Below, piece by piece: positions 10,475-35,842 of a DNA stretch of 64,000 nt. Position 1 is the stretch's first letter. Every line of letters begins with the position of its first letter. The stretch is from positions 1 through 64,000 of the IMG/VR virus record IMGVR_UViG_3300020050_009955. One strand, written 5' to 3'. The stretch is from a virus (Duplodnaviria > Caudoviricetes). The notes beneath the pieces are model-generated. The model was not told where the DNA came from. It saw nothing but the letters and a program-made list of their open reading frames with translations, and did not search any database. Position numbers and translations under genes: made by a program.

Positions 10475-11980
10475 ATGGCAAATACCGCAGGAAGTTCGAT
10501 GATCATCAAGCATTACGACGGATTTGGAGGTAATTTCATTGACTCTCAATATTTAGGAGCATCTTATGATGGTGTAGGTAAACCTCACGTATTCCAAGAT
10601 ACCCTAATGAGAATCTTCTCATCACAGAATAGATTTATCACTAATGGTGGTAAACTTCTGATTGGTATGACAGGTGCGAAAGGCCCTATCAATACCATGG
10701 AGATAGATACTGAAATCTACAGATGGTACCTACAAGGTGCTGATTATAGAACGGCGAGAGTAATTGAAAACCCTGAATCTTCTAATACAGTGCTTGGTAT
10801 CAACAACACAGTATTCAGACTAAAATTAGATTTAGATTATTACGCAGAACCAGATGTTCTATTAGCAGAAAATAACAACTACGCTCTTGAAGTAATAGGA
10901 GATCCTATTCAAGAAGGAAATGGTTATGTTTATTCATTCCGTCTTCAAGGAGACGATATGTCACAATACCTTCCAAGCTACTTGGTAGATCCAGGAAGAG
11001 AGCTTTCTAAAGGATGGACTTCAGTTCAGTCTGAGTACAATGAGAAATTCGGTACTCAACAATACCCATCTTCAATGCAACTTGAACACCAAATTTCTTA
11101 CTTTGCTGAGAAACAAACTGTTACAGACAAAGCTTGGAGAAATCAAGGTAGACTTGGAGTAAAATTCCTTTACAAAGATCCTATGTCTGGCGCAGACAAA
11201 TCAGTTGAAAAATTCCTTCCATACGCTGAAGCAGTAATGCAAGATCAGTTCCACATGGACATGGAAGTTCAAATGATGTTTGGTAAGAAACAAACTAGAG
11301 CTGGACATAAAGGTTACTGGAAGAAAACTGGTAACGGTGTAAGAGAGCAACTAAAAGATAGCTGGATAGATATCTATTCATCTGCTTTAACTGTTACTCG
11401 TCTTAAAGATTACCTATTAAACATCTTCTTTGCAAGAGTAAATGAAGGAGATCGTAAAATGGTGGCTATGACTGGAACTTATGGTTCACTTCAATTCCAC
11501 AACATGCTTGCTTCTGTAGCTAGCTCATTCTTGACTGTAGACACTATGTTTACTCAGATGCTATCTAAAGATCCTAGACACTTATCATTTGGTGCTCAGT
11601 TCACTCACTACCAAGGTCCTGAAGGAATCGAGGTGACTTTAGTGAAGAACCCAATGTACGATAATCGTCAGTATTGTAAGCAAACACACCCACAATACTC
11701 TAACATCCCTGTAGATTCATTCCGTTATACATTCCTTGATTTTGGAGGAGCTGGTACATCTGAAAAAGGTGGAGCTATCAACAATATCATGATGTTGAAA
11801 GAAAAAGATTCTTACGCATGGGGTTATGTTCATGGTACACACACTCCAACAGGTCCTGTTAAAGGTGGAGTAGCTGGTGGTCTTATCGCTGGTTATGATA
11901 TCTTTATGCAAGGTTCTGCAGGTGTATGGATCAAAGACGTTACACGTTGTGGTGAGCTCGTCCTGGACTTTCAAAGCTAA
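10475..11980 (+). CDS. Major capsid protein. Unspliced form ends ELVLDFQS; spliced form join(10475..11953,12803..12829) ends ELIYDSQS
   Basis: About 500 aa with crAss MCP-like motifs (YRWYL, GNGVREQL, TGTYG, FGAQFTHY, NPMYD, FLDFG, DVTRCGEL) and the expected synteny. Confidence 0.9.
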   Translation: MANTAGSSMIIKHYDGFGGNFIDSQYLGASYDGVGKPHVFQDTLMRIFSSQNRFITNGGKLLIGMTGAKGPINTMEIDTEIYRWYLQGADYRTARVIENPESSNTVLGINNTVFRLKLDLDYYAEPDVLLAENNNYALEVIGDPIQEGNGYVYSFRLQGDDMSQYLPSYLVDPGRELSKGWTSVQSEYNEKFGTQQYPSSMQLEHQISYFAEKQTVTDKAWRNQGRLGVKFLYKDPMSGADKSVEKFLPYAEAVMQDQFHMDMEVQMMFGKKQTRAGHKGYWKKTGNGVREQLKDSWIDIYSSALTVTRLKDYLLNIFFARVNEGDRKMVAMTGTYGSLQFHNMLASVASSFLTVDTMFTQMLSKDPRHLSFGAQFTHYQGPEGIEVTLVKNPMYDNRQYCKQTHPQYSNIPVDSFRYTFLDFGGAGTSEKGGAINNIMMLKEKDSYAWGYVHGTHTPTGPVKGGVAGGLIAGYDIFMQGSAGVWIKDVTRCGELVLDFQS

Positions 11981-13957: not shown

Positions 13958-14683
13958 ATGACAGTAGAAGAATTACATTTTCAATTTATTTTAGCTAAGG
14001 ATAGCGTAGATGCGTTGTCGCATCATACATTCAATCGTGCACAGATTGATTGGCTTCTTAACGATGCCCAGTTGCGAGTCATTAGGGCAAAGACTTCTGG
14101 TGAGAACGAAAAGCTTCTGGGTTACGAAATGACTCAAAAGTTGGCCGACGAATTCTCTACTCTGCATATTAAGTATCCATTACAACCCGCAGTACAACTT
14201 GTTGATCATGGTGGGGTCTATGAACTAGATCTCACCAAGCTCAAGTTTAAGTATTTAAGACTAATGAATGGAGAAGTGGAGGTCACTATTGATCCCGACT
14301 GTAAAAAGTACGTACCTTTAAAGTTCACGCAATCAGATGATATCAAAATTGCATTTAGGGATCCATTTAATTCTCCATCAACAGAGTTTATCCCATATAA
14401 TATTGGGAGAAGTGCTGATGGTTCCGCATCGTCTTCTTTATACATATATCCAGGAACTTATACCGCTACTAACGCAAAAATAGAATACTTAAAGTATCCT
14501 TCCAAAATATCCTTCGGTGACTACAAATATATAGATGGGGTAATATATCCTAAATCTACATCTGAGTTACCAGAAGAGATGCATCATAAGATAGTTGACA
14601 AAGCAGTTGAATTAGCATCCGTGTACATCATGGATCCAAATACCACAGCCTTCCATCAACTAGCTTATTCATTCGATTCTTAA
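13958..14683 (+). CDS. Tail ring / head-tail adaptor protein
   Basis: MT..E.H..F...D, IDWLLNDAQ, YLKYP and ELPEEMHHKIVDKAV motifs typical of crAss ring proteins. Confidence 0.75.
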   Translation: MTVEELHFQFILAKDSVDALSHHTFNRAQIDWLLNDAQLRVIRAKTSGENEKLLGYEMTQKLADEFSTLHIKYPLQPAVQLVDHGGVYELDLTKLKFKYLRLMNGEVEVTIDPDCKKYVPLKFTQSDDIKIAFRDPFNSPSTEFIPYNIGRSADGSASSSLYIYPGTYTATNAKIEYLKYPSKISFGDYKYIDGVIYPKSTSELPEEMHHKIVDKAVELASVYIMDPNTTAFHQLAYSFDS

Positions 14684-20568: not shown

Positions 20569-21626
20569 TGCCAACATATACTCAACAGCAAATCGAGAAT
20601 GTTTGGTTTGCATTAAATTTAAATAGACTAAAACCTAACAATGACGCTAACTCTGGTGCAGGATTACATAATCCTAATGGATCTATTAATATGTACAAGT
20701 GGTTACAAGACGCACTAATGTTATTAGGAGGTACGGGAAGTGGTATGAATGATAACATCTACAATGCCGATGGCACACTAACAGATAATAGAACGCTATC
20801 TTTTAGTACTGATAAGACATTAACATTTAGCTCTACCTCAACACCATTTACTACTACATTATGGACAAGTAATGCTTTTACTCAAACCATAGGAAAACCA
20901 GTAGGAACAGTAGATTTAGACACAAGATCTCAAATTGTTAATACTGGTGTAGGAGTTTTGAAGTCAGCTGGTTTAAATGCACAAATATATAAAGATGGTG
21001 ATGTAAGTATTGCAAATATAGCAGTGTCTAGTACAGGATCTGGTATAGAAGATGTACGTGCTATTATGGAAATTGAAAATCGTATAGATAATAACAACAT
21101 CTTTTTTGAACTTTATTCACAAGTAAATGGAGCATACCCATGGGCAAAACTTATTATACCAACTAACTATCAATATGGAGAAGGTGTTGATGTTTTAGAC
21201 TATATGGTACCTTCTAAAGTGCCTACGCTTAACGATGAATTACGTTACACATACCCCCTACAAAGAACTGTATTTAACTTTGGAGATGCTAATTATAGAG
21301 CTGTAGTAAATGACTATGCTACAGGAGCTTTAGCTACAGGATCTAATGGAGATAAAATGACTGCAGTGGAAGTTATTGTAAGCGCTCGTCTATATGCAAA
21401 TAGTTCAGGAACATTAGAAATTAGAATAATAGAAGCTAGCTCTGGATCAGATTTATATACTAAATCTATTGACATGTCTACTTTACCTAATACTTATGGG
21501 ACTATGTCACAAGAAGGTATAACTTTATCTTTAAATATTGATGAACAATATTATTGTATGGTAACAGCAACATCAGGAGATGGTACAAATGTTAGAGGAT
21601 TATCAGTAACTTTATTAACAATATAA
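20568..21626 (+). CDS. Putative fibre/structural protein
   Basis: NIYNADGTLTDNRTL motif seen in Bacteroidota fibre-like proteins, beta-rich C-terminal domain. Confidence 0.55.
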   Translation: MPTYTQQQIENVWFALNLNRLKPNNDANSGAGLHNPNGSINMYKWLQDALMLLGGTGSGMNDNIYNADGTLTDNRTLSFSTDKTLTFSSTSTPFTTTLWTSNAFTQTIGKPVGTVDLDTRSQIVNTGVGVLKSAGLNAQIYKDGDVSIANIAVSSTGSGIEDVRAIMEIENRIDNNNIFFELYSQVNGAYPWAKLIIPTNYQYGEGVDVLDYMVPSKVPTLNDELRYTYPLQRTVFNFGDANYRAVVNDYATGALATGSNGDKMTAVEVIVSARLYANSSGTLEIRIIEASSGSDLYTKSIDMSTLPNTYGTMSQEGITLSLNIDEQYYCMVTATSGDGTNVRGLSVTLLTI

Positions 21627-22147
21627 TGATAGCGAGTGTAGTACAAACAGTAGATCAACCCTGCTCAGCAGTACGATTTACGTCGGATTTATTTACCACA
21701 TTTAACAACGCTAACTCTGGAACTTTAACTTTAGAATATACTGTTAATTGTGGTGAAAAAGTTGTAGTTGAATTTGACTATACAACTGTAGGAACTTATT
21801 ATGAAATTACAACAGATGAGGATAAAGTATGCGATGGTATTTATTGCGGAAAGCTAACATACGTACCAGCTAACACTACTACAAATGTAATCGAATATGC
21901 ATCTACTTTTGTATCATGTGATACTGAATGTAGAATATACGATGAGTTTGCTAAAGACAGGTCTACCTCTTCTATGGTACTTTACTATGATGTAATTAAG
22001 TTAGCTGTAACATGCGATACATGTGAATGTGTTAAAGCATGTACTCTATTCAATGAGTTGAATGGAATCATTACAGGTAATGAAACATCAATTGATATGA
22101 GCAAATTTATAAAAATAGAAGATTGTGGCTGTAATAAATCTAAATAA
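21626..22147 (+). CDS. Cys-rich structural protein (tail hub-like)
   Basis: Ig-like DGIY segment, C-terminal helix and DCGC ending. Position matches crAss tail-hub genes. Confidence 0.5.
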   Translation: MIASVVQTVDQPCSAVRFTSDLFTTFNNANSGTLTLEYTVNCGEKVVVEFDYTTVGTYYEITTDEDKVCDGIYCGKLTYVPANTTTNVIEYASTFVSCDTECRIYDEFAKDRSTSSMVLYYDVIKLAVTCDTCECVKACTLFNELNGIITGNETSIDMSKFIKIEDCGCNKSK

Positions 22148-22445
22148 GCTAAGATGTACTCCAGTAGAGTTGTTGTATAACCATGTAATCAATAAGCATT
22201 ATGGTATGGATTGTAATCCTTTGTATACAGAGGCTACAGCATATGCTGCTTATAGAGATTATTGGATGTACCAAAGAAAAGACAATTGTGTATCTAATTG
22301 TAATATAGAAGACATTATCCGTAAATCAAACTATGGCTGTGACTCTATTACAATATGTTCGGATAAAACAATTAATTGTAATCTGACTTTGCAAGTAACT
22401 GATTCTTCCAATAACTGCGACGGAATAAACTTAATAATAACATAA
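22125..22445 (+). CDS. Cys-rich structural protein (tail hub-like)
   Basis: GTG start, YG..C motif, Cys-rich. Confidence 0.5.
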   Translation: MAVINLNKLRCTPVELLYNHVINKHYGMDCNPLYTEATAYAAYRDYWMYQRKDNCVSNCNIEDIIRKSNYGCDSITICSDKTINCNLTLQVTDSSNNCDGINLIIT

Positions 22446-22446
22446 C

Positions 22447-25041
22447 ATGATAAAGATATCATCACATTCATATAAACCAACATCAGGTGTTGGACCCTTT
22501 ACCTACCAATGGTCAAGTCCTAATTCCTGTGTGTATTTTGATAAACCTTCTGGAACAGTAGGATCTGGATCAAGTTTTGTAACAGATATCTTTGTTTCAG
22601 ACTTGACTTGCTTTCAATTCGGAGTAGATTTAATTACTTTATCTCTAATAGACGCCAATGGTTGTCAAACTAACCATACATTTTATCCAACTAATCCATG
22701 CAACAACTTATCAATTACTAACATTGGACAAGGTCCAAATGAATTTGATTTTAGTGTAACAGCATCAGGAGGAGATGGAAATTATAACTTCGACTGGAGT
22801 ATTAAACCAGATGGTTTATTTGCTATATCCACTGTTTCAGCTCAAGGTAAAGATTATCAATCTATACATATTACACCATTAAACTATGGCCCTAAGCCTA
22901 CTTTCTTTGATATTACTTGTGTAGTAACGGATTACAATGGTTGCAAAGATTCAGTAACATCTAGATTTCCTTTATCAGGAGTCTTACTATCTAATATAGT
23001 ATCAGAATCTTCATGTATAGAAGAAGGAAATGAAACACCTTCAGGATTTGCTAAGTACGATATAAAAGGTAACTTACTAAACAAAGCAGTACAAGCAGGA
23101 CCAATCCTACTATCTGCTCAGTCATATGCACCTGGTTGTGAACCAGATTGGAGTACAATCTCATTTGCTTTACCAGATACATCTATACAATATAAATTAT
23201 CTACTAATCCTACAGCAGTAACATTCTATGGTATTAAGAAGACTCTATTTAAAAACGGATTTCTTAACATTCCATTTACTGTTCTAGATTGCAAAGGAGC
23301 TATATCTAATGAAGCTTACATCACAATCTATGAAGCTATCTGTGGAGATAATATTACAGGATGCCCACTAATAGTTAATAACTTATGTATTACTAATTGT
23401 GATACAGTGTTTACTATTAACTTAGAAGATTTAATTAAATCACCTGATTGTTGTTCTGAAAACTCAATCGACTGGACTACATTCGACATATTACCTGGAG
23501 CTCCAAAGCTACCAGCTACAGTCGAGTACAATGCAGGTAATCACACTATAACATATACAGCTAATGGATCTACAGAGATTGCAGATTTGATTAGATGGGG
23601 TATTAAAGATGCTTTAGGAAACTACTCAGGTATTAAGACTATACAGATAGCTAGACTATGCCCTCAAGCACCGGCTTGTACAAATGATTGTTATTACGTA
23701 TCACAAAATGCAATTAATCACCCTTTGAATGTTTTAGTTAATGATCTTGGGCCAAATCTAAAATTAGATACTCTGGTTATATCTCAGATACCTGAACATG
23801 GTGTGGCGTATGTGTTAGATGGTGATATTTATTATACACCATTCAATGATTATGAAGGAGTTGATACTCTAAAGTATAAAATATTTAACTATGATGGACT
23901 TTCTTGTGAAGCTACTGTAACTTTAAACATAGCTGAGAATGGACCAGCTGGTACAGGTAATTCTATTGTTACTTGCGCATTGCCAGAAACTATTACAAAC
24001 GATGTAGAAATCAATGGTGTTTATTCTAACGGAGATTTTGATATAATCTTCACTGCTTATAAAAACGATGAAGAACCGTTAGAAGATGGGGATGAATTAG
24101 ATGTTACAATAGTAGTAGACATGGTAGAAATAGCTTCAGCAACTTTAATTATAGGTGAGGACTATACGACACTAGCAGGTGTTAAAACTGGAACTGATGA
24201 TCAATGGTTAACAGGAACAAACTATTTTTCACAATTCTTAACTGCTGGAGTACTAGATAAAAATACTTTAGTAACAGGTCAAGTAATTAAATTTAACAAA
24301 AAAGATTGGGCATGGGCTACAGGACATATTAATACATATGAAGATCTTGAGAAAGGAGGAACAACTCAATTAAATGCAGAATCTATTTTGGTTACGATGA
24401 AGGCTAGAAATGTTAGCCTACCTTTAGAGTCTGTTATAAAATCAGGAACTGTAGAACTTGTTAAAATATTCGCCTTTGAGGATACTGACCACATCTTAGA
24501 TAATAACTCTAATAATGCAGGAACTTGGGAACCTTATGCAGGTGATTGGGTTATAGCACCAAATGGTGGACCTTGTATACCAAATGTATGCGCATGTGAT
24601 CCAGATGGTTGTCATGGCTGTGATTATCATGGACTAACTCCTAATGGTCAAATACGAAGTTGGTACTCTCAATTTTTCTCCTGCAATCCTTATGACGGAG
24701 CTAAAAAATTACGAAAATATAAAATAGTAGGTGAAACAGAAGTGACTGGATTGACTACTGCATTTACAACTGAAGCTAATTTAAAAACAATATTAGAAGC
24801 ACTTCCACAAACATGGAGCTTTCCTTACGGTGTTGGAGGATATGTAGACTGGGATTATTTAGCAACAGCACCTAATGATTATAATTTGTACGGGCATAAT
24901 GCAAAATATTTAATATCAGGATATATGTTAGCATCTGAAAAGGAACTTGAATACTTTGTTATATCGTATGATGGTGCGGATGGAGCAGGGCACACTGATA
25001 CAGGAGCTAAATGTACAACAGTATCTCATATATTATTCTAA
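22447..25041 (+). CDS. Cys-rich adhesin-like virion protein with SprB-like and Ig/cadherin-like repeats
   Basis: SG.GP(F/Y)TY.WS...DANGC and ASGGDGNYNFDWS...VTDYNGC (SprB-like). LNVLVND...P.HG.A...YTP..DYEGVDTLKY (Big_9/cadherin-like). Confidence 0.7.
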   Translation: MIKISSHSYKPTSGVGPFTYQWSSPNSCVYFDKPSGTVGSGSSFVTDIFVSDLTCFQFGVDLITLSLIDANGCQTNHTFYPTNPCNNLSITNIGQGPNEFDFSVTASGGDGNYNFDWSIKPDGLFAISTVSAQGKDYQSIHITPLNYGPKPTFFDITCVVTDYNGCKDSVTSRFPLSGVLLSNIVSESSCIEEGNETPSGFAKYDIKGNLLNKAVQAGPILLSAQSYAPGCEPDWSTISFALPDTSIQYKLSTNPTAVTFYGIKKTLFKNGFLNIPFTVLDCKGAISNEAYITIYEAICGDNITGCPLIVNNLCITNCDTVFTINLEDLIKSPDCCSENSIDWTTFDILPGAPKLPATVEYNAGNHTITYTANGSTEIADLIRWGIKDALGNYSGIKTIQIARLCPQAPACTNDCYYVSQNAINHPLNVLVNDLGPNLKLDTLVISQIPEHGVAYVLDGDIYYTPFNDYEGVDTLKYKIFNYDGLSCEATVTLNIAENGPAGTGNSIVTCALPETITNDVEINGVYSNGDFDIIFTAYKNDEEPLEDGDELDVTIVVDMVEIASATLIIGEDYTTLAGVKTGTDDQWLTGTNYFSQFLTAGVLDKNTLVTGQVIKFNKKDWAWATGHINTYEDLEKGGTTQLNAESILVTMKARNVSLPLESVIKSGTVELVKIFAFEDTDHILDNNSNNAGTWEPYAGDWVIAPNGGPCIPNVCACDPDGCHGCDYHGLTPNGQIRSWYSQFFSCNPYDGAKKLRKYKIVGETEVTGLTTAFTTEANLKTILEALPQTWSFPYGVGGYVDWDYLATAPNDYNLYGHNAKYLISGYMLASEKELEYFVISYDGADGAGHTDTGAKCTTVSHILF

Positions 25042-25067
25042 CTAATAAAATTTAAAAATTAAATAAA

Positions 25068-25763
25068 ATGTCTTGTGAAAACAATCTATTTACGCTACTA
25101 ACAGGTACTCCTACACCAGGAGGTACTTGGACATTGAAAAGTATAACAGGCTCTGGTGCACCATCTAGTGTGAAACTTAATATGGCAGAAGGTTCCCCAG
25201 CAGGCACTTACTACGATGTTGATGTAGCTTCTTTACCATCACCAGTGTTGAACCCTAATGGAGGGTCAACAGACCATAATTTATGGTGGAAACCAATAGG
25301 AACTGCACCATATTCAAACAATCCTGCAACTTGTAATACATCTTGGGTCTATACTTTTACATATACTCCACCTGCAAGTTTATGCAACAATCCACCAACT
25401 GCTGACATTGTGTGGACATTATATACATCAGAGAATGGAACAACCAATTATGATGTTTGCGATGGAACTGCAGTTTTTAGCATGCAATCAAAACTTACTG
25501 GATGCGGTGCTACTGCACCTAATGGTGGTACTTGGACTATTATTCAAGATAATGGAAATCCAGACGCTTTTAATTTAGGTGCAGGAACTTTTAATCCTTC
25601 AGATGCAGAAGTTACTGGAGGACAAACATATATTGCAAAATACACAGTAGATATTGATGGAGCTGGTACTTGTGCTGATTGTATAGAAGAATACACATTA
25701 GAAATAGATATTATAGCTGGATCATCTGCAGGAGAAGATGGTGAAGTGACAACATGCATATAA
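25068..25763 (+). CDS. Cys-rich adhesin-like repeat protein
   Basis: Two L..LL.G.P..GGTW repeats with GTFNPS and YTFTYT/KYTV strands. Confidence 0.65.
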   Translation: MSCENNLFTLLTGTPTPGGTWTLKSITGSGAPSSVKLNMAEGSPAGTYYDVDVASLPSPVLNPNGGSTDHNLWWKPIGTAPYSNNPATCNTSWVYTFTYTPPASLCNNPPTADIVWTLYTSENGTTNYDVCDGTAVFSMQSKLTGCGATAPNGGTWTIIQDNGNPDAFNLGAGTFNPSDAEVTGGQTYIAKYTVDIDGAGTCADCIEEYTLEIDIIAGSSAGEDGEVTTCI

Positions 25764-25764
25764 T

Positions 25765-27228
25765 ATGGTTAGTTATTGTCTAGCATCATTACTCAATGGA
25801 ACTCCGTCACCAGGAGGTACTTGGACATACACATCAGGACCTGTTAGTGTAAGTGTTGGAGTATGTCCCGTATCTGGAACCAACTGCACAGCTCCTATTA
25901 TGACAAAAGCTGTAGGTACTATTATTGGTACAGGATTAAATATATGTGCTACATTTTCAATGGCTGGTACTTATGTATTTACTTATGATGTGACAGCATT
26001 ATCTCCTACGTGTTGTAATCCATGTACAAGTACTGCAACTGTAACTATATCTAATCTAGACTTAGCCTTATCAGGAACTTCACAATCATGTACGGATACT
26101 ATAGAGCTAACTGGAGGAACAGCTAGTCCTATTTGTTGTTCAGGTAATGCTAATATTAGTGCAATGTTACGTGTAAATAATTCTTGTTGGGGATCTAGCA
26201 CACAAATAACAAGTTCAAATCCAAGTGTTCCTGTAAATGGAAAAACTGGTTGGGATTTAAATCTCGTTTCAGATTTTCAAGAATGTCCAGATATTGATTA
26301 TTTAGAATTAACTGTAGCTAGATGTGAAGGAGGTAATATCACATTACATACAGAACAAGTTAACAATTTTGGTTCTATTGGATCATGCCCAGGATTTAGT
26401 AAATTAGGACCTTGGAGTACAATGGCAGATTTAGTTACTTTTTATACCTGTGCAATTCCACTTAGAATTGCAGCAGCGTTTACTGGATACCTTGGGTTTA
26501 CTCCTGTAAATGGAATACATTATAATTTAACAGTAAGTAGTTTAGGAAATACATTACAAATTAGATTTGGAATTAAAAATACCGAACCTGGAAGTTGTTG
26601 TAGTTCGCCATTATGTAATTCTCCAAATGATGTTTGGATTGGAGCTAAGATTGGAAATATATGCAAATGGAAACCATTAGGAGCCTGTGTATATTCAACA
26701 ATGTCACCAGCACAATTGTTTGCATCATCTGCAGCTACCTTATCGTTTTCATCTATACCTGGTTTTTGTGCAAGTCCTGGAACATATAATTTATCTGTTA
26801 CATTTGGTAATCTATTAAGTGCTGCAGGTTGCGACTTTAATAAATTAAGTTTTCAATCTTTTAATAATTGGACAATTACTAATGTTACAAGTACGCCTGC
26901 TGGACAATTTATATTTAATGGATCTTTCTGGCAAAATACATGTAAATCTATTATTTTAACTGCTACTACTTCTTGTGCGTCTCCAAATACTTTTACGTGG
27001 TCAAACGGTTCGTTTGATACTAACGTATCCTCAAGTACTAGAGTCTTTGCTGCAGATAGTGGAAATACTCAATTGTGTGCAAGTGTAAAATTGCAGTGTG
27101 GTGGTTGTACTGTTTGTAGGCATATATGCTATAGTGAAAATGCAGGAATAATTGGTATATCTAATACTGGAGATTGTAGTTGTGGTGGTGGTTCCCCTTG
27201 TGGCGTGGACTGTAATAATTGTACATAG
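25765..27228 (+). CDS. Very Cys-rich adhesin-like protein
   Basis: LASLLNGTPSPGGTW...AGTYVFTYDV repeat. About 34 Cys in 487 aa by manual count. Confidence 0.65.
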   Translation: MVSYCLASLLNGTPSPGGTWTYTSGPVSVSVGVCPVSGTNCTAPIMTKAVGTIIGTGLNICATFSMAGTYVFTYDVTALSPTCCNPCTSTATVTISNLDLALSGTSQSCTDTIELTGGTASPICCSGNANISAMLRVNNSCWGSSTQITSSNPSVPVNGKTGWDLNLVSDFQECPDIDYLELTVARCEGGNITLHTEQVNNFGSIGSCPGFSKLGPWSTMADLVTFYTCAIPLRIAAAFTGYLGFTPVNGIHYNLTVSSLGNTLQIRFGIKNTEPGSCCSSPLCNSPNDVWIGAKIGNICKWKPLGACVYSTMSPAQLFASSAATLSFSSIPGFCASPGTYNLSVTFGNLLSAAGCDFNKLSFQSFNNWTITNVTSTPAGQFIFNGSFWQNTCKSIILTATTSCASPNTFTWSNGSFDTNVSSSTRVFAADSGNTQLCASVKLQCGGCTVCRHICYSENAGIIGISNTGDCSCGGGSPCGVDCNNCT

Positions 27229-27352: not shown

Positions 27353-28054
27353 ATGGCAACTTTAAAAGAACATATTTATGCAGTAAAGAATCTCTTAGAA
27401 AGAGGTTTGGCTTCAGATGACTCTAGGTTATCTGAAAGATTTATTGCATTCTTGCTTAAAGGAGCAAGATCCCAACTGCTAAAAGAAAAGATAAACAAGT
27501 ATAGAGAAGTATCACCATTGTCTTACCAGACAATATGTGTACCTCTAGAACTAACAACCTATCATGAATGTGATTGTTTACCAGCATCTGTAGGATGTAA
27601 AATTCTAAAATCTAAATGTCACATACCTAGAGAATTAGTATCCAAATGGGGTAGCTCATTAACTGTTCTTACAGCATCTGGTAGAGTATTAGATATGAGT
27701 TCACTTACTCAAAACGATTTAGCTAAGTTCTCAGACTCTAATAAGAAACCTAAGTTAGCTTATTTTATAGAGAACCAACACATATATGTGATGAATGATA
27801 CAAAACTTAAGATGGTTTTGTTATCTGCTATATGGGATGATCCAGAAATAGTTAAAGAATTTTGTGGATGTAATTCGAATAATCCAGATGAACCTTGTTA
27901 TGATCCTCTAAATGATGACTTCCCAATTGACTCCGAGTTAGCTAGACCTATGAGATTACTTGTAGTACAAGAATTGCAGAATCAATATAGAATGCCTGAA
28001 GACAATTTAAATAATGCTAAGAGTGTAGATGCTGGACAAGACAAAGAAAACTAG
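27353..28054 (+). CDS. Tail ring protein
   Basis: MATL.E.IY, SDDS.LS.R, Q.ICVPLE, C.IL.S...IP and D.FPID motifs. First gene of the ring-IHF-ring-muzzle block. Confidence 0.75.
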   Translation: MATLKEHIYAVKNLLERGLASDDSRLSERFIAFLLKGARSQLLKEKINKYREVSPLSYQTICVPLELTTYHECDCLPASVGCKILKSKCHIPRELVSKWGSSLTVLTASGRVLDMSSLTQNDLAKFSDSNKKPKLAYFIENQHIYVMNDTKLKMVLLSAIWDDPEIVKEFCGCNSNNPDEPCYDPLNDDFPIDSELARPMRLLVVQELQNQYRMPEDNLNNAKSVDAGQDKEN

Positions 28055-28532
28055 ATCTGAAATAGTTGAATGGAATAGAATAGCGCATAAAAAAGTTCAT
28101 CCTCAACTAACTCAAAAAGATGTATACGAAAATTACATCAAAGAATATCCAGAATCTGAAATAACTTATGAAGAATATAAAAAAGTTATAACACAGTTTA
28201 ACTGGTATTTTATGAACTATGTTATATATACCGGTTTTACTATTTTATTACCATTCTTCTTAGGAACATTCTCTGTAATTCGTAAAGCATCTAAAGGTTA
28301 CAAAATTGATTTCCATCATTTTAAAACTACAGGAGAACGTAAGAAGCATTACAACAAACATTCAGAAAGATACTATGCTAGATTTTACTGGAACAAGTCT
28401 TCTAAAAGATACCACAATAGATGGTTTAAACATTTATTTCTATTTAAATCTAATAGATTAATTAGAGCAGATTTAGCTAAAGCTATAAAGAACCATAATA
28501 CAATATATAAATACCAATACTACGAAACATAA
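28029..28532 (+). CDS. IHF/HU-like protein of the crAss tail module
   Basis: Y..Y...I..FN...LPFFLGTFSVIR...IDF...Y..F.W.K pattern, basic. Confidence 0.7.
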   Translation: MLDKTKKTRSEIVEWNRIAHKKVHPQLTQKDVYENYIKEYPESEITYEEYKKVITQFNWYFMNYVIYTGFTILLPFFLGTFSVIRKASKGYKIDFHHFKTTGERKKHYNKHSERYYARFYWNKSSKRYHNRWFKHLFLFKSNRLIRADLAKAIKNHNTIYKYQYYET

Positions 28533-29371
28533 TGGAAGCAACACCTTATATTTCTATTAGATCTGTACTGTATGACATCTCTACAATGATGGATCAAAAA
28601 GAATGGAATGAAGCCAACATGCTTGAATGGGCATACAGAGCTTTAAGAAAAAATAAATCAACTAAGATATACACAACAAAGGTAGCTTTGATTGATGTAT
28701 ACGAACATAAGTTTCCTCTACCTGTAGACTTAAAGTATCTACACCAAATAGCTTATAAAGTTTGTACAACGGAACAATTGTACGAAGAAGTTAAAGAGAT
28801 ATTAGGATTAGACCAACCAGGGTTTGAAGGATCTTCGCTACCATATTCAGCTTTACTAAACTTGTATAATGCAGGTTTTAATAGATGGACTCCGCTAAGA
28901 CTTAGCCCGAGTCCATTTGCATTATCTATACATTGTGGTTACAGACTACCAGAGTGTCCTACATGTGAGCATGAGTATACAGTAGATGAGCAATTGATAT
29001 GTACAACTTCTTTAAAAGAAGGTAAAGTATTAATATCATACATGGCTTATCCTGAAAACGAAGATGGTGATGCACTAATGCCAGACCATCCAGATCTTAG
29101 AGATGCGATAATGCATTATTGTTTACACAGACACTATATGAGTAAATCACTTAAAGCTGCCGGTACTGATCAGTCTGCAAATAGACAAAGAGATTATCAT
29201 TTAGCTATGTATCAAACACTATCTGCTAAGTCTGCAGGGGATATGAATCTCCCATCACTCAATGAATTGGATAACTATAAGAGACAACATAACCGTTTAG
29301 TTCCTAGAGCTCATCAGTACGATAAGTTCTTCTTAGGACTGAATGGTCAAGAAAGAGTAAGAAATGCCTAA
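28532..29371 (+). CDS. Tail tubular/ring protein (P22 gp4-like)
   Basis: YISI..V, EW...AL, LP.DL, G.V.ISY...DG...PD...AI..Y motifs, directly before the muzzle gene. Confidence 0.75.
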   Translation: MEATPYISIRSVLYDISTMMDQKEWNEANMLEWAYRALRKNKSTKIYTTKVALIDVYEHKFPLPVDLKYLHQIAYKVCTTEQLYEEVKEILGLDQPGFEGSSLPYSALLNLYNAGFNRWTPLRLSPSPFALSIHCGYRLPECPTCEHEYTVDEQLICTTSLKEGKVLISYMAYPENEDGDALMPDHPDLRDAIMHYCLHRHYMSKSLKAAGTDQSANRQRDYHLAMYQTLSAKSAGDMNLPSLNELDNYKRQHNRLVPRAHQYDKFFLGLNGQERVRNA

Positions 29372-32300
29372 TCAACAAAATAATACACACATAGCTACGG
29401 CATCCAAGGGAATGTCGATGGATACTAAACATAAGTATCAGCCTGAAGGAAAAGCCTCGTTCATTTTGAATGGGGTTTTGGAGTCTACAGTAGGTGACTA
29501 TCCTACTATTACAAATGAGTTAGGAACTTTGCTGTGTACTACTGTTACTCCAGGTTTTATAATTATAGGTGTACAACAATTAGATGGTGATGATTTTGCA
29601 ATCTTTAGTGTAACAGATAAAAACAATGTTTCTGAAATAGGAATATTTAATCAAGCTAAATGTGAATACAAACCATTAGTTCAAACAGGATGTTTAAACT
29701 TTAACACTAATAATAGAATAAAAACTTTATTTAGAATACTAGGAGGTTGTGAAAGAATAATTTATTTTACTGATGGGGTTAATCCATATAGATCTATAAA
29801 TCTAGATAAACTAGAGGACTATTATGATGATAATAAAAACTTTGATTGTACTAAATTAGAATTATCAAGACCTATACAAATTCCAGGAATGGAATTATTT
29901 AAAATAAATGATGGTGGAGGACAAATACCATTAGGTACTTGGAGATTTAGAATTAGATATTTAGATCAAGATTTAAACCCTACAAATTGGATGTTATTAA
30001 CTGCAGGTATTCCTATAGTTGATGAAAACATATCTGCTGATTTTTATAATGTTGATGGTGGATATAATCTAACAGCTAAAAGTGAACAAGATGGAGGAGT
30101 GCCAATCTCTAATAAATCGATAATATTAAAGTTATCTAATTTAGATTTAAAATTTTATTATTATCAGATAGCTGTTTTGGGTAGAGTTTCTGGAACAGGT
30201 AAATCAACCGTCGCATATATTCTACCACCAAAAACTATAACTTTTTCTGAAGAGGAGTATACGTATACTGGTCCAAATACAAATACAGATATTGCTACAG
30301 ATGTAACAGCTTTAACAGTTGATCCTGGAATTATAGATATTGTAGATGCACATGCTCAAATAGACAATAGATTATTTTTAGCAAATTTGTCTAATCCGAA
30401 TTTTAAATATGGAGATATACAAAGAGCTGCTAATAAGATTACAATAGAATGGGTAAAAGGAGAGAATAAATGGGAAGATCTTAGTGAGGAAAGCGGATCA
30501 GGAAAATCACCTTATGTATATACAAATTATAGAACATTTATGGCAGATGAGGTATACGCATTTGGTATAAGAGGTTTTCATAAAAAAGGATGGTCAACTC
30601 CAGTATTTCATATTCCAGGTAGAGAAGAAATATTAAACACTACCTTAGATGGTCAACAATTAATTAATTTAGGAAACTCTAATCCTCACTATAGAAATAA
30701 AGTAACTATAGCACCAACTGCAGTAGGTTCTTGGGATAAAGAACCTTTGACAATTATAAAAAGAGCTAATACTATAAATACTAAAACACAAGCAAACAAT
30801 AATGCATCGCAAGTAGATGAATGGGATGCTAGACATTTAGGACCTGCAGGATCTACAATTCCAAGATGGAAAATGTACAATACAGCAATACAGAAATCAA
30901 GTAGCAACGTTGGTATTATGGCATATCATGAATCTATAAATGACTATCCTGATATAAAAGATTGTAGTGGTGAACGAGTATTTCCAGAAGGAAAAATAAG
31001 ACATCATAGATTTCCAGATAGAACTTTAGTTAATTTATATAAAACGACTATAGAAACTGATAACACTGTTTATAATGCACCATATGATAGCGCGACAAAA
31101 TTAGATAAAAGAATTGAAGATGAAGAAACATTAGTCTATCCTTTAGGATTTAGACCACAGTTAGACGCATTCTTTGCATCTCTACCTCAGGATATTTTAG
31201 ATAATTTTACTAATTGGGAAATTGTTGTAAGTGTTCGAGATGAACCTAATAAAACTGTTTTAGACAAAGGTTATATATATTCAGCTAATGGGGTATTTGA
31301 TGATACAAATCTAGATGGAGATGCTGTTTTTGCTCCATGGTATACCTATATTAATACCGTTCATGAGTTATATACTTCATTCGTTTCTCCAAAAATAATG
31401 TTTAATACAGAGTTTTTAAATGGGAGTTATTATAAGCATGAATTAGAATTTGATCATAAGATACAGTCAACAATATTAAATGCAAGTAGTTATAGAGTTT
31501 TTGGAGATTCTGTAAATGGTAATCAAGTTAGGTTTTTTGATTATAGTATGTATAATCCAAAGATTCCAGATGCTGCACAACCAATATATCAATTTAAATC
31601 TAGAGCTATAAACCAGTCTACATTTTTAAGTAACTATACACCTATTAAAGGTGAAGACGGTGATAACTTTGATACAAATGATGGGAATGCTTTTACATTT
31701 AATTCTAACACAATCTTAAATACTAAAAAAGTAAAAAACCCATATTTCAATAATTATCAATTTATATCTAATGTTAAAGATCCTTTAATATCAAGAGGAT
31801 CATTTATCAGGTCTTTAACATTCAATAGACTCATATTAGATGACTTGCATACAAAGAATAACTTATCCTACGTTTCAATAAAAAGACAAGTTGACCCGTA
31901 TTCTAATTTATTCGGTATACAATATAGAAGTACAAATTCTTTTTATTCAAAGTATACAACAAAAGTTGTTACTAGTCCTTTAGATCCTATAGGTGTTTTA
32001 CGCAATAGTTTCTCTGGGGATTGCTTTATAGGTAAGATGGCTTATACTTGGAAATTTCCATTTACAGATCCAGATGAAGATAAGCTTAGAAATAATGGTG
32101 TGTGGGTTAATGGATTCTACGAATCTGAAATAAATGTTGACCTTAGACATTCTGGATCAGAAAAGAAAGACCAATACTTTAAAAAAGATTTAAAGAAAGC
32201 TACTGTAGACGATCTTTATAAGCATGTTAAAATTCTGAATGAAGATAATGACATTTATATTACCAAAGAATTTTGGGGATATAATCAGGATTTTTCAGGA

Positions 32301-33758
32301 GTATCTGATGAAGCTTTATTTTTCTCTTTACCTATAAATTATGATTACTGTGCTAAGTGTGATAACAAGTATCCATTCAGAATTAGATACTCAGAAAAAT
32401 CGTTTCAAGATCAAGTACTAGATAAATATAAAATCTTTTTGTCTTATAACTTTACGGATTTGCCAGGAGATACTTTAGCAATAAACAATTTGTTTGTAGA
32501 TAAGAATGAGTTATATGCACATACACCTAAGGCTTTATACTTTGTACCTACTAGACAGCAATCATTACAAACCAATGAGAATACTATTTACATAGGAACT
32601 GGAGAAATCTTTGCAGTACCGCCTAGAAGATTAGTATCACTTAATTACGCTTATGGTGGATCAGTAGATCCTTGGGCAACAGTACCATCTGAATTTGGAA
32701 CTTTATTTATAGATTCTCTATCAGGTAAAATATTTATGCTACAAGAAGGGCTTAAAGAAATATCTACTCATGGAATGAGAAACTTCTTTGAGAATGAATT
32801 AGGTTTAAAGCTTAACGAACAAATTAAATCTATCTATGGAAAAGATTATCCATTTAAATCTCCAACAGTTGCTAATGATTTAGGTATTGGGTACAATGCT
32901 ACATTTGATACTCGACATAGAAGATTTATTCTACATAAGAGAGATTACGAAATGTTAGCACCTACACATAAGGATTGGTCTTTAAGAGATGATGGATTAT
33001 ATTTTAATAATAAGAAAATTCAAAATCTTACAAAGAGTTATGGATTGTTTAGAAATAAATCTTGGACTCTATCATACAGCTTAGCTCATGAGTCTTGGGT
33101 ATCATTTCATTCATACTTTCCAGATTATATCTGGAATTCTGAATCAGATGTATTCTCAACTATAAAGCAAAATGTAGATTCTAATCTTATCTACAAACAC
33201 AACAAAGGTGATTATACTACTTACTACAATAAACCAAAATCAGATTTCATACTAGAGTTAGTATCTAATCCAAGCCCAATGACTACTAAGAAATTTGGAC
33301 CTATCAGATTAATACACGACACACAGGTATATGATTCTGTTACAAGACAATTTAAGGATATCTACGATTTAACATTTGAACGTGGGATCTTCTACGCATC
33401 AGATATATCTACAGGAGAATTAAGCATAAGACAACAGTCTTCATTTGGATCTGTAACCGATCCATTTCCTAATAGGATACTATTTGAACGTAAGGGTAGA
33501 GAGGTGCACATGAACGAAATCTTAGACGTAGTATCTACAGACTTGCCTATATTTACAAGTGAGTGGACAGTAATACAACCTAACTACTTTATAGATAAGT
33601 TAGTTAATACGAATGCTGTTGACTTTAATAAAAGCCTATTTACAAAATCAAGAATGGTAGACCAATACATGGTATCAAGACTATTCTTCAACCCAAACGA
33701 TAATATAAAAATCACTTTTGAAGGACTCATTAGTGAGTTTAAACCATTTATAAGATAA
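29364..33758 (+). CDS. Tail stabilisation / muzzle protein (P22 gp10-like)
   Basis: 1464 aa. KGM..D, NE.G, IYFTDG.NP.R.IN, NRLFLAN, EVYAFGI, IRHHRFP, RIRYS and SWTLSYS...WVSFHSY.P motifs. Confidence 0.85.
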   Translation: MPNQQNNTHIATASKGMSMDTKHKYQPEGKASFILNGVLESTVGDYPTITNELGTLLCTTVTPGFIIIGVQQLDGDDFAIFSVTDKNNVSEIGIFNQAKCEYKPLVQTGCLNFNTNNRIKTLFRILGGCERIIYFTDGVNPYRSINLDKLEDYYDDNKNFDCTKLELSRPIQIPGMELFKINDGGGQIPLGTWRFRIRYLDQDLNPTNWMLLTAGIPIVDENISADFYNVDGGYNLTAKSEQDGGVPISNKSIILKLSNLDLKFYYYQIAVLGRVSGTGKSTVAYILPPKTITFSEEEYTYTGPNTNTDIATDVTALTVDPGIIDIVDAHAQIDNRLFLANLSNPNFKYGDIQRAANKITIEWVKGENKWEDLSEESGSGKSPYVYTNYRTFMADEVYAFGIRGFHKKGWSTPVFHIPGREEILNTTLDGQQLINLGNSNPHYRNKVTIAPTAVGSWDKEPLTIIKRANTINTKTQANNNASQVDEWDARHLGPAGSTIPRWKMYNTAIQKSSSNVGIMAYHESINDYPDIKDCSGERVFPEGKIRHHRFPDRTLVNLYKTTIETDNTVYNAPYDSATKLDKRIEDEETLVYPLGFRPQLDAFFASLPQDILDNFTNWEIVVSVRDEPNKTVLDKGYIYSANGVFDDTNLDGDAVFAPWYTYINTVHELYTSFVSPKIMFNTEFLNGSYYKHELEFDHKIQSTILNASSYRVFGDSVNGNQVRFFDYSMYNPKIPDAAQPIYQFKSRAINQSTFLSNYTPIKGEDGDNFDTNDGNAFTFNSNTILNTKKVKNPYFNNYQFISNVKDPLISRGSFIRSLTFNRLILDDLHTKNNLSYVSIKRQVDPYSNLFGIQYRSTNSFYSKYTTKVVTSPLDPIGVLRNSFSGDCFIGKMAYTWKFPFTDPDEDKLRNNGVWVNGFYESEINVDLRHSGSEKKDQYFKKDLKKATVDDLYKHVKILNEDNDIYITKEFWGYNQDFSGVSDEALFFSLPINYDYCAKCDNKYPFRIRYSEKSFQDQVLDKYKIFLSYNFTDLPGDTLAINNLFVDKNELYAHTPKALYFVPTRQQSLQTNENTIYIGTGEIFAVPPRRLVSLNYAYGGSVDPWATVPSEFGTLFIDSLSGKIFMLQEGLKEISTHGMRNFFENELGLKLNEQIKSIYGKDYPFKSPTVANDLGIGYNATFDTRHRRFILHKRDYEMLAPTHKDWSLRDDGLYFNNKKIQNLTKSYGLFRNKSWTLSYSLAHESWVSFHSYFPDYIWNSESDVFSTIKQNVDSNLIYKHNKGDYTTYYNKPKSDFILELVSNPSPMTTKKFGPIRLIHDTQVYDSVTRQFKDIYDLTFERGIFYASDISTGELSIRQQSSFGSVTDPFPNRILFERKGREVHMNEILDVVSTDLPIFTSEWTVIQPNYFIDKLVNTNAVDFNKSLFTKSRMVDQYMVSRLFFNPNDNIKITFEGLISEFKPFIR

Positions 33759-35842
33759 TGAAAAGATACAATAAAAACAGACAAAAATTTAATGTCCAAC
33801 TGTCTGACGGTACAAATAATATATCGTTTGAACAAATGTGGGCTCTTAATCAAGCATCCAAATCTCCAGGATTTATTTCTAACCCGTTAGCTAAAGCATA
33901 CAGTAATGCATTTGTTTCTGGTGGGCAAATACTTCAAGGAATAGGAGGAATAGCATCTGCAGTTCCAATACCTGGTGTAGCTATAGGTGGTGCGGCTCTA
34001 AGTATGCTAGGAGGTTTAATAGATAAACCTGCAGCACAAAAACCAACATACGGCACTGAAACAACTACCAGATATGGCATGGCTACAGGAGGTTCTATGG
34101 AGCCTATATCCCCTAATGCTATGGAAGTAACTGGTGCACCAAATCAAACAGATGGTAATCAGATAAACTATAAAGGACAACCTATCAATGTAGATCACGG
34201 AGAAGTGATTGACCATTCTAAAGATATAGTCTTTTCAGATAAATTATTTGACCCAAGATCAGGTAAATCATTTGCTGACACAGTTAAGCCTATGGAGAAA
34301 CTAATAGGTAAATTATCTAAGATGCCGTCTAATATTAACAACAATACTATTAAAGCTTTAGAACAACAGAAGCAGAAAGTGTTTCAAACACAAGAACAAG
34401 TAGCTGCAGCATTGGGTCAAAGAAATTCAGATGGTTCTACAGTACAGCCTGGACAGCCAGCTATGGCATCTGGTGGCAGAATAAAATCATACACATCTGG
34501 AGGAGTTCCAGATTTAACACAGTTTTTTCTAGGCAAACCGTATCAATCTTCACAACAATATGCGTCTAATATAGAACCGTATATCGAAGAACCGTTAAAG
34601 CCTAAGAGCACATTTAAGTATGCAAAAGGATATCAGTCTTATGCGGATTTAGATTTAGACAGAGACGATGTTCAGAAACAAGTAGAAGCTTTTTTTGCAA
34701 GTGATGCAGGTCAAAGGTATCAAAGAGCTCAAAGAGGAAAGAATCCTAAATGGAATTTTTATGGATCGAATCAGGATGCTAATAATACCATCGGCCCAAA
34801 ATTTGCACACTTATTAGCTGACCCAGAATTTCAAAAATTATATAGAACTTCTATTAATACTCCACCAACAACAGCTAAAAAAGAAGTATATGGAAATAAT
34901 CCTATTTTACCTATACAAGAAGCCGGAGGTTATAATGCAGTATTAAAACCTACCAACAGGTATTCAAAACCGAGTTATGCAGATGAAGCACAAAGTACTT
35001 ATGATACGGATAGAGAGAATGCACGTTTAGCCGGAACCACTGAAGATAACAAAAGACCAGGTTCAGAACCATTTGATGCTAAAGGAGCAATCAATCAATT
35101 TTTTAAAGATAATCCTAACTCTGCACAACCTCTTAAAAAACCATCTAAATTTGGTTTAGGTGATTACTTACAATTAGGTGCAGCTGGAGCTTCTGTGCTT
35201 GGCGCGTTATTTGATAAACCAGAAAAACAAAGACCTAATTTAGATAAAACACAAATTACTCAAAATAGATATGACCCAGCTAATGCATTAATGCAAAATC
35301 AATACACTACTAATGCGGGTATGATGGCTAACACTAATAACTATTCATCAGCGGGAGTTCAAGCAGGTCTTCAAAATTTAATGGCTAATAAGTATAAAGC
35401 AGATTCCCAAGTTCAAAGTCAGTACGATCAAATGAACAATCAAGCAAGAACTCAGTATGAGCAAAGGTTACAACAACAAAATCAATTCAATGCTCAAACA
35501 CTATCAGCTAACGATGATAAGAATGTTGCAAATAGAGCAGCATATACCAATAATTTATATGGAGCTTTACAGACAGTTTCTAATGTTGGCAAAGGATTCA
35601 ATCAGAAAGCAACATCCGAAAAAGCTGTTAATGCTTTAATTGCAAACGACCCACAAGCTGCACAAGGATTCTTGGATGCTAATGGTCAAGTAGATCAAGC
35701 AGCTTTACAAAAAAATAATGAATTACGAAGACAAGTTTATCAAACAATAGATGACGGTATATTCTATCAAGGTGGTACTAAATATAAAAAGCTAGGAACA
35801 TATCTTACAGGTGGTAAAATAAAATTAAGAAAGAGAAGATAA
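33758..35842 (+). CDS. Ejected cargo protein 1
   Basis: Gly/Ala-rich hydrophobic hairpins, VDHGEV...VFSDKL domain, Gln/Asn-rich coils, repeated xAxGG motifs. Follows the muzzle gene. Confidence 0.7.
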   Translation: MKRYNKNRQKFNVQLSDGTNNISFEQMWALNQASKSPGFISNPLAKAYSNAFVSGGQILQGIGGIASAVPIPGVAIGGAALSMLGGLIDKPAAQKPTYGTETTTRYGMATGGSMEPISPNAMEVTGAPNQTDGNQINYKGQPINVDHGEVIDHSKDIVFSDKLFDPRSGKSFADTVKPMEKLIGKLSKMPSNINNNTIKALEQQKQKVFQTQEQVAAALGQRNSDGSTVQPGQPAMASGGRIKSYTSGGVPDLTQFFLGKPYQSSQQYASNIEPYIEEPLKPKSTFKYAKGYQSYADLDLDRDDVQKQVEAFFASDAGQRYQRAQRGKNPKWNFYGSNQDANNTIGPKFAHLLADPEFQKLYRTSINTPPTTAKKEVYGNNPILPIQEAGGYNAVLKPTNRYSKPSYADEAQSTYDTDRENARLAGTTEDNKRPGSEPFDAKGAINQFFKDNPNSAQPLKKPSKFGLGDYLQLGAAGASVLGALFDKPEKQRPNLDKTQITQNRYDPANALMQNQYTTNAGMMANTNNYSSAGVQAGLQNLMANKYKADSQVQSQYDQMNNQARTQYEQRLQQQNQFNAQTLSANDDKNVANRAAYTNNLYGALQTVSNVGKGFNQKATSEKAVNALIANDPQAAQGFLDANGQVDQAALQKNNELRRQVYQTIDDGIFYQGGTKYKKLGTYLTGGKIKLRKRR

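Follow-up and report, generated by a model that had tools for sequence, protein, structure and literature searches.

Locus and repeat

The DNA analysed here, called the window throughout, is the first 64 kb (64,000 nucleotides) of a 99,355-base contig from an uncultured crAss-like phage of wastewater (IMG/VR record IMGVR_UViG_3300020050_009955). Directly upstream of its gene for ring protein 2 lie three consecutive genes, here named g1, g2 and g3. The present analysis mainly concerns g2 and g3, at whose boundary one copy of an adhesin-type repeat is divided between two proteins. By sequence comparison this boundary is a conserved and old gene fission that kept the repeat in register, and the genome context makes g2 and g3 most likely two separate virion proteins of the phage. 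The coordinates of the genes, of their domains and of the neighbouring features are collected in Table 1.

The repeat was searched for with a profile made of 41 copies of about 80 residues, cut in register from giant Bacteroidota adhesins encoded on two metagenome loci (L003 and L006). The giant adhesins of these two loci and of a third, L004, contain at least 25 contiguous copies each; they are nearly 3000 residues long, their copies are very regular and a PorP/SprF-like gene is adjacent in each locus. No Pfam model was found for this repeat. A six-frame search of the window with the profile returned g2 (E-value 3e-9), g3 (E-value 6e-7) and no other match, and the whole 99-kb genome gave nothing beyond these two genes. 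The phage copies are three in number and carry insertions. They have in common with the bacterial repeats a first strand of the form AG-x7-C, a helix-loop with G.P..GG.W, a Y.Y.V strand, a second cysteine (Cys) and a final alternating strand. Pfam and PHROGs searches with g2 and g3 gave no match, profile searches in the same collections assigned none of g1, g2 and g3 to any crassvirus family, and a profile search of the sequences in the PDB yielded chance matches only (E about 1).

Placing the two proteins on the profile showed that the repeat crosses the gene boundary with its register intact, with the loss of one residue and with no insertion or deletion. Residues A221 to C230 of g2 correspond to repeat positions 4-13 and I231 to position 14, the stop codon takes position 15, and M1 of g3 stands at position 16. 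M1 of g2 falls at position 15, and g2 residues 124-131 form the opening strand of a second copy, which is complete. The N-termini of g2 and g3 lie therefore at an equivalent point, just past the first strand, and both open straight into the repeat. The register given by the profile coordinates emerged again when g2 was aligned by MAFFT with 33 adhesin segments of two repeats and g3 with 40 segments of one repeat. The invariant columns are common to 34-40 adhesin segments and include C106, C131, C202, G222 and C230 of g2, and L10, G12, P14, G18, W20, Y74, C84 and C109 of g3. Within the C-terminal tail of g2, G222 and C230 are invariant and A221 is nearly so among 40 aligned sequences.

An initial annotation of this DNA had described g2 as ending in AG-x7-C-I followed by TAA, g3 as resuming the same repeat one nucleotide later, and g2 itself as beginning with an L..LL.G.P..GGTW motif. 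All three descriptions were borne out, g3 starting at 25765 in the +1 frame with its own L..LL.G.P..GGTW motif. The arrangement of stop, single base and ATG suggests translational coupling of the two genes; the same TAA-N-ATG layout in the +1 frame occurs at 22445/22447, between a gene for a 106-residue protein and g1, and at 35842/35844. The cysteines of that description needed a correction: the canonical repeat cysteine is C230 of the g2 tail, and the N-terminal cysteines of g2 (C3) and g3 (C5) are not canonical, falling at positions 17 and 20, which are free of cysteine in the adhesin repeats. In a 98%-identical variant of g2 (P0001), C3 (25074-25076) is replaced by tyrosine, so that this cysteine is dispensable or polymorphic.

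Table 1. Features of the window, with the g2/g3 pair first. Positions are those of the window.
Feature	Position	Strand	Size or basis
g2	25068-25763	+	231 residues
g2 domain 1 (residues 1-120), immunoglobulin (Ig)-like adhesin repeat from position 15, without A strand	25068..25427	+	profile, AlphaFold2 (AF2)
g2 domain 2 (residues 121-218), complete repeat, own A strand at residues 124-131 ending in C131	25428..25721	+	profile, AF2
g2 C-terminal tail (residues 219-231), homologous to the first strand, positions 3-14; predicted donor strand	25722..25760	+	alignment, AF2, complex model
Junction TAATATG: g2 stop, one base, g3 ATG in +1 frame	25761..25767	+	sequence
g3	25765-27228	+	487 residues
g3 domain 1 (residues 1-100), repeat from position 16, without A strand; predicted acceptor of the g2 tail	25765..26064	+	profile, complex model
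Rest of g3 (residues 101-487), very Cys-rich; A-strand-like start ending in C109	26065..27228	+	sequence, alignment
g1, upstream neighbour	22447-25041	+	864 residues; Pfam, homologue search
g1 residues 499-510, "orphan first strand" of the initial annotation; first strand of the next domain of g1	23941..23976	+	conservation, adhesin matches
Crassvirus major capsid protein	10475-11980	+	Pfam
Ring protein 3/4	13958-14683	+	Pfam
Ring protein 2	27353-28054	+	Pfam
Ring protein 1	28532-29371	+	Pfam
Muzzle protein	29364-33758	+	Pfam

Conservation of the split

Near-identical phage DNA was present in 20 runs from 17 studies, chiefly of activated sludge and wastewater; the habitats, sampled by these studies from 2016 to 2025, also include wetland, soil and bioreactor metagenomes. 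Positions 25755-25770 were bridged without any indel by contigs of three independent runs and studies (X13, X16 and X20). Run X19 was not counted as bridging, its contig ending 7 bases past the junction.

Relatives of the two proteins were then compared. Seven relatives of g2 (48-98% identity, 231-238 residues) have the same start and end residues in every case. The three relatives of g3 (41-80% identity, 484-487 residues) share its first 10 residues without change, down to the lowest identity, and the start methionine of g3 is kept in 4/4 sequences. The gene ends are the best-conserved parts of both proteins. Measured by the share of homologues that carry the residue of the query, the g2 tail reaches 0.82 and the g2 body 0.48; residues 1-20 of g3 reach 0.93 and residues 101-487 reach 0.61. 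No fused form was found among g3 homologues of 267-853 residues, a range that covers the fusion of about 719 residues, nor among g2 homologues of 406-2000 residues. Since one g2 relative and one g3 relative are encoded on contigs of 11,315 bases each, the two genes are probably neighbours there too. A search for relatives in IMG/VR returned this phage alone, metagenomes of the Joint Genome Institute (JGI) gave bacterial adhesins only, and neither blastn of 22447-27228 nor tblastn of g2 found a match in the phage collection.

Of the checks proposed in the initial annotation, two were thus borne out: the junction is supported by assembled contigs, and the split points recur in the protein sequences of relatives. 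Its alternative, a single ancestral gene broken by a frameshift, holds in part. The perfect register, the one-base offset and the TAA-T-ATG sequence make such a gene the probable origin of the pair; a recent break or a read error does not fit, the split being ancient and maintained.

Domain organisation of g2

A first AF2 model of g2 obtained with 8 sequences had a predicted local distance difference test (pLDDT) value of 56 and was unusable. Its place was taken by a model from an alignment of 40 rows, for which the adhesin segments had been cut in register; this model reached a mean pLDDT of 79. In domain 1, where profile positions 19-59 match residues 5-49, the model contains strands at 20-27, 35-41, 49-53, 72-76, 92-100 and 111-117 and no A strand; this domain folds at pLDDT about 70-80 without a partner. 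Domain 2 is modelled at pLDDT 87-94 with its first strand at 124-131, and residues 217-231, which include the tail, are coil in the monomer.

Foldseek and VIA-align searches with the g2 model retrieved no specific relative, only generic Ig, cadherin, PKD and Rib domains. These solved domains align to residues 121..217/218 of the model with Z-scores of at most 7.4, pointing to a generic fold. Their limits assign the first strand to the domain after it and leave the g2 tail outside domain 2, and both points argue against the gene boundaries being plain domain boundaries. By profile register and AF2, g2 and g3 each begin with an Ig-like domain from which one strand is missing, domain 1 starting at position 15 in g2 and at position 16 in g3.

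Model of a proposed g2-g3 joint

In domain 1 of g3 the profile matches at positions 20-42 and 50-79; for g3 the ESM Atlas offered weak PKD-like leads, all below 0.9. Modelling of protein pairs, which the initial annotation had proposed, was carried out for g2/g3. Full-length g2 and residues 1-100 of g3, each with its own alignment, were modelled as a heterodimer in three runs, together with 3 controls. The interaction score (ipSAE) was 0.71, 0.53 and 0.70 (median 0.70), and the best of the 3 controls scored 0.00. The contacts of the runs agreed to at least 86% and the partner pLDDT was at least 86. The modelled interface comprises residues 216-231 of g2 plus 129, 131-132 and 134, and residues 1-2, 4, 9-15, 18, 64-67, 74-76, 79-80 and 82-98 of g3. 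In the model, g2 residues 221-228 run parallel to g3 residues 86-94; next to the last strand of domain 1, the tail occupies the place left by the absent first strand.

These results suggest the following course of events. An array of Ig-like repeats of the host-adhesin type would have been cut in register by a one-base shift, giving g2 and g3. As the cut fell just past the first beta-strand, g2 would have kept a free C-terminal strand (residues 219-231) and the first domain of g3 would have been left without one. The g2 tail would insert beside the last strand of g3 domain 1, rebuilding a canonical domain, and through the completed domain g2 and g3 would become successive subunits of a fibre, linked end to end. 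We assign a probability of roughly 55% to this reading, namely that g2 and g3 are made as separate proteins by coupled translation and that the tail of the former links the two by completing domain 1 of the latter.

The complementation itself is deduced from the model, which shows that the two halves of the split domain are still compatible; actual binding is beyond its reach. The initial annotation had proposed that subunits of this locus are chained by beta-strand complementation, and the modelled joint is in line with this for the g2 tail and g3 domain 1; a link from g1 to g2, or a donor strand inside g1, was not supported. With regard to the disulfides it had also invoked, whole-protein cysteine counts of 27 in g1, 8 in g2 and 34 in g3 make disulfides in these proteins plausible, and C230 may take part in a disulfide lock of the joint.

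Several points weigh against strand complementation between g2 and g3. Binding is seen in a model only, and the two parts of a divided domain are prone to pass a test of this kind through their likeness to contiguous domains. The mark used for the complex score was reached by 58/80 solved complexes and by 2/110 mismatched pairs, counts that hold only roughly here, the alignments having been built from contiguous adhesin repeats. The tail strand taken alone was not significant, either with the 80-residue profile (independent E-value, iE, 35) or with a strand-only profile (iE 6.3, rank 4 of 1083 segments); the latter, 22 positions long, had no discriminating power and was dropped. The tail was therefore identified from its register, its invariant columns, its conservation and the models, and not from a profile score of its own. 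The strand is equally missing from domain 1 of g2, for which no donor came to light, so that N-terminal domains of this kind may be stable when open. Furthermore, the relatives (including P0003, P0005, P0006, P0009, P0010 and P0011) were compared at the protein level, and the presence of g2 and g3 in the virion is deduced here from their genes.

Alternative explanations

The fission could also be a relic without complementation, leaving g2 and g3 as independent proteins whose N-terminal domains fold without a first strand. Conservation of the g2 tail and of the g3 N-terminus would then stem from contacts with other partners, ring or hub proteins for instance, or from the constraints that overlapping translation signals impose. 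Such a relic accords with the equally open domain 1 of g2, for which the genome encodes no clear donor, with the folding of domain 1 alone in AF2 and with the lack of significance of the strand motif by itself. It leaves the exact register as a coincidence, and it sits badly with a tail that is far more conserved than the body of g2, lies outside domain 2 and is confidently placed by the model in the vacant site of g3 domain 1, where the controls score 0.00. We regard a mere relic as unlikely, while keeping it in mind as a serious competitor.

Alternatively, the g2 tail might also, or instead, fill domain 1 of another g2 molecule, giving a pilus-like chain of g2 subunits capped by g3. Such a chain corresponds to the fibre put forward in the initial annotation, which had also suggested branching and exchangeable tips. 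In its parts g2 is suited to this role, being both an acceptor, with domain 1 open from position 15, and the owner of a donor tail; g3 is an acceptor only, and no other clear donor is present in the genome. In the complex model, however, the tail went to g3 in 3/3 runs, though no second copy of g2 was on offer, and the fibres of crAss001 are trimeric assemblies and not donor-strand polymers (PMC10172136). A head-to-tail polymer is compatible with the g2-g3 joint proposed above, but we hold it to be rather doubtful. A fuller picture along the same lines would combine a genetically hard-wired, receptor-binding fibre of head-to-tail, strand-donating g2 subunits, built as Bacteroidota build their pili, with a Cys-rich g3 tip, cysteine locks (C230 and an acceptor cysteine) closed in an oxidising environment, assembly without a chaperone and an origin from a stolen host adhesin; taken as a whole, this combination is improbable.

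A programmed +1 frameshift at the g2 stop would produce a g2-g3 fusion with a continuous repeat, and a +1 shift at ATA-TAA-T does read one residue and then the g3 methionine, restoring the repeat register exactly. Nevertheless, the ATA codon in the P site is unable to re-pair with TAT, and the last g2 codon specifies isoleucine or valine among relatives, so that no conserved slippery site is evident at the level of this protein comparison. The retention of the g3 start methionine, the occurrence of TAA-N-ATG at two other operon junctions and the lack of any fused homologue in the databases speak further against frameshifting, which we consider very unlikely. Finally, a sequencing or assembly error, of which an offset by one base is the classic sign, or a recent pseudogene can be practically discarded given the indel-free junction in independent contigs of three studies and the same gene ends and lengths in relatives at 41-57% identity.

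The upstream gene g1 and the genome context

The N-terminal part of g1 contains SprB-like motifs, and its region at about residues 340-535 is Big_9/cadherin-like and common to giant adhesins, with a Pfam Big_9 match at residues 407-494. This region (23450-24050) is a second, different class of host-adhesin repeat. A homologue search with g1 gave 4386 hits at E<=1e-3, mostly giant bacterial adhesins, many of them with 20-45 matched stretches; four phage-type relatives were found (P0013, P0014, P0015 and P0017).

The initial annotation had seen in g1 an orphan first strand that might act as a donor. The letters are present at that place, but conserved g1 sequence follows the strand and aligns with the next adhesin repeat. 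C510 is invariant in relatives, the sequence beyond it is conserved, matches of the Big_9-type adhesin repeats pass through the strand to residues 509-537, and the 80-residue repeat profile did not match at 23941-23976. The strand begins the next domain of g1 and was rejected as a free donor. The C-terminus of g1 was likewise considered as a donor for g2 domain 1; it offers AG-x7-C plus eight residues, but without conservation of the AG and without a match to the profile, and this candidate was dropped as unsupported. The last ten residues of g1 (855-864, 25012-25041) hardly change among relatives with 39-57% identity, and the linker that precedes them varies in length; g1 thus has a conserved C-terminal peg, and its number of cysteines (27) is odd. 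Here g1 is treated as the upstream neighbour of the split pair.

Just upstream of g1, at 21626-22445, are encoded two small proteins of 173 and 106 residues with 7-7.5% cysteine and without a family match, which may play the part of the tail hub proteins in this phage. The gene for the 106-residue protein (22125-22470 region) ends at 22445 and g1 follows from 22447, with stop, one base and ATG in the +1 frame. At its end the 106-residue protein has C-D-G plus a hydrophobic strand, and the start of g1 lies within a SprB-like motif, but the spacing is incompatible with a single SprB repeat.

The plus strand carries all large open reading frames of the window in dense packing. Pfam searches identified the crassvirus markers Crass_capsid, ring proteins 1, 2 and 3/4 and the muzzle protein. 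The end of g3 and the start of ring protein 2 are 124 bases apart, with ring protein 1 and the muzzle protein further on. In crAss001, this genomic neighbourhood is occupied by the tail hub proteins (PMC10172136), and we infer that g2 and g3 belong to the tail fibre or hub.

Comparison with known systems and significance

In chaperone-usher pili, in the type V pili of Bacteroidota (FimA, Mfa1) and in TasA, an Ig-like subunit that lacks an edge strand is completed by the terminal extension of its neighbour, and g2-g3 would work alike (PMC9674648, PMC13655056). However, g2/g3 are unrelated in sequence to these donor-strand fibres and are not accompanied by a chaperone, an usher or a priming protease; the scan of g1-g3 and of eight neighbours detected no family of pilins, chaperones or ushers. 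Moreover, the strand is missing genetically, via gene fission, and not through removal or chaperoning. The proteins would be put together in the cytoplasm while the phage particle forms, and the joint was modelled here as a heterodimer and not as a polymer.

The closest positional counterparts are the crAss001 proteins THA (gp38) and THB (gp39) and the tail fibres, which are encoded in the same neighbourhood as g1-g3, directly upstream of ring protein 2 (PMC10172136). There, the C-terminal arm of THB reaches into the neighbouring hub, and disulfides stabilise the hub and the rings (PMC10172136). Linking through terminal arms and cysteines has thus a precedent in the order, but these hub contacts are not the completion of a split Ig domain, unlike the modelled g2-g3 joint.

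By profile and alignment, the repeat of g2/g3 is the same as that of giant adhesins of the type IX secretion system (T9SS), namely those of L003, L004 and L006 and a Flavobacterium 'beta strand repeat-containing protein' (P0012). The adhesins carry their at least 25 copies contiguously in a single secreted polypeptide that also bears a T9SS C-terminal domain, whereas the phage has three copies and no contiguous tandem array: a stop and a +1 shift place the third copy partly in g2 and partly in g3. Pfam detected no T9SS sorting domain in g1, g2 or g3; no signal-peptide predictor was run.

A man-made counterpart exists in SpyTag/SpyCatcher, derived from CnaB2, in which an Ig-like domain is split, a strand is supplied in trans and an isopeptide bond locks the pair. 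A terminal strand given in trans completes an Ig-like domain in both cases, but g2/g3 are natural and their putative lock is a disulfide. A narrow literature search turned up no paper in which phage fibre proteins are linked like this.

If the g2 tail does complete g3 domain 1, the pair would be a natural split Ig-like domain joining phage fibre proteins, a form of pilus-like strand complementation fixed by gene fission and free of chaperones. It would also provide a small natural tag-and-catcher pair for protein engineering, made of a 13-residue strand and a 100-residue domain. The finding gives a testable handle on unannotated proteins of a widespread wastewater crassvirus and, if the joint is real, would show how host adhesin repeats, once captured, are made by phages of Bacteroidota into modular receptor-binding parts that can be re-combined.

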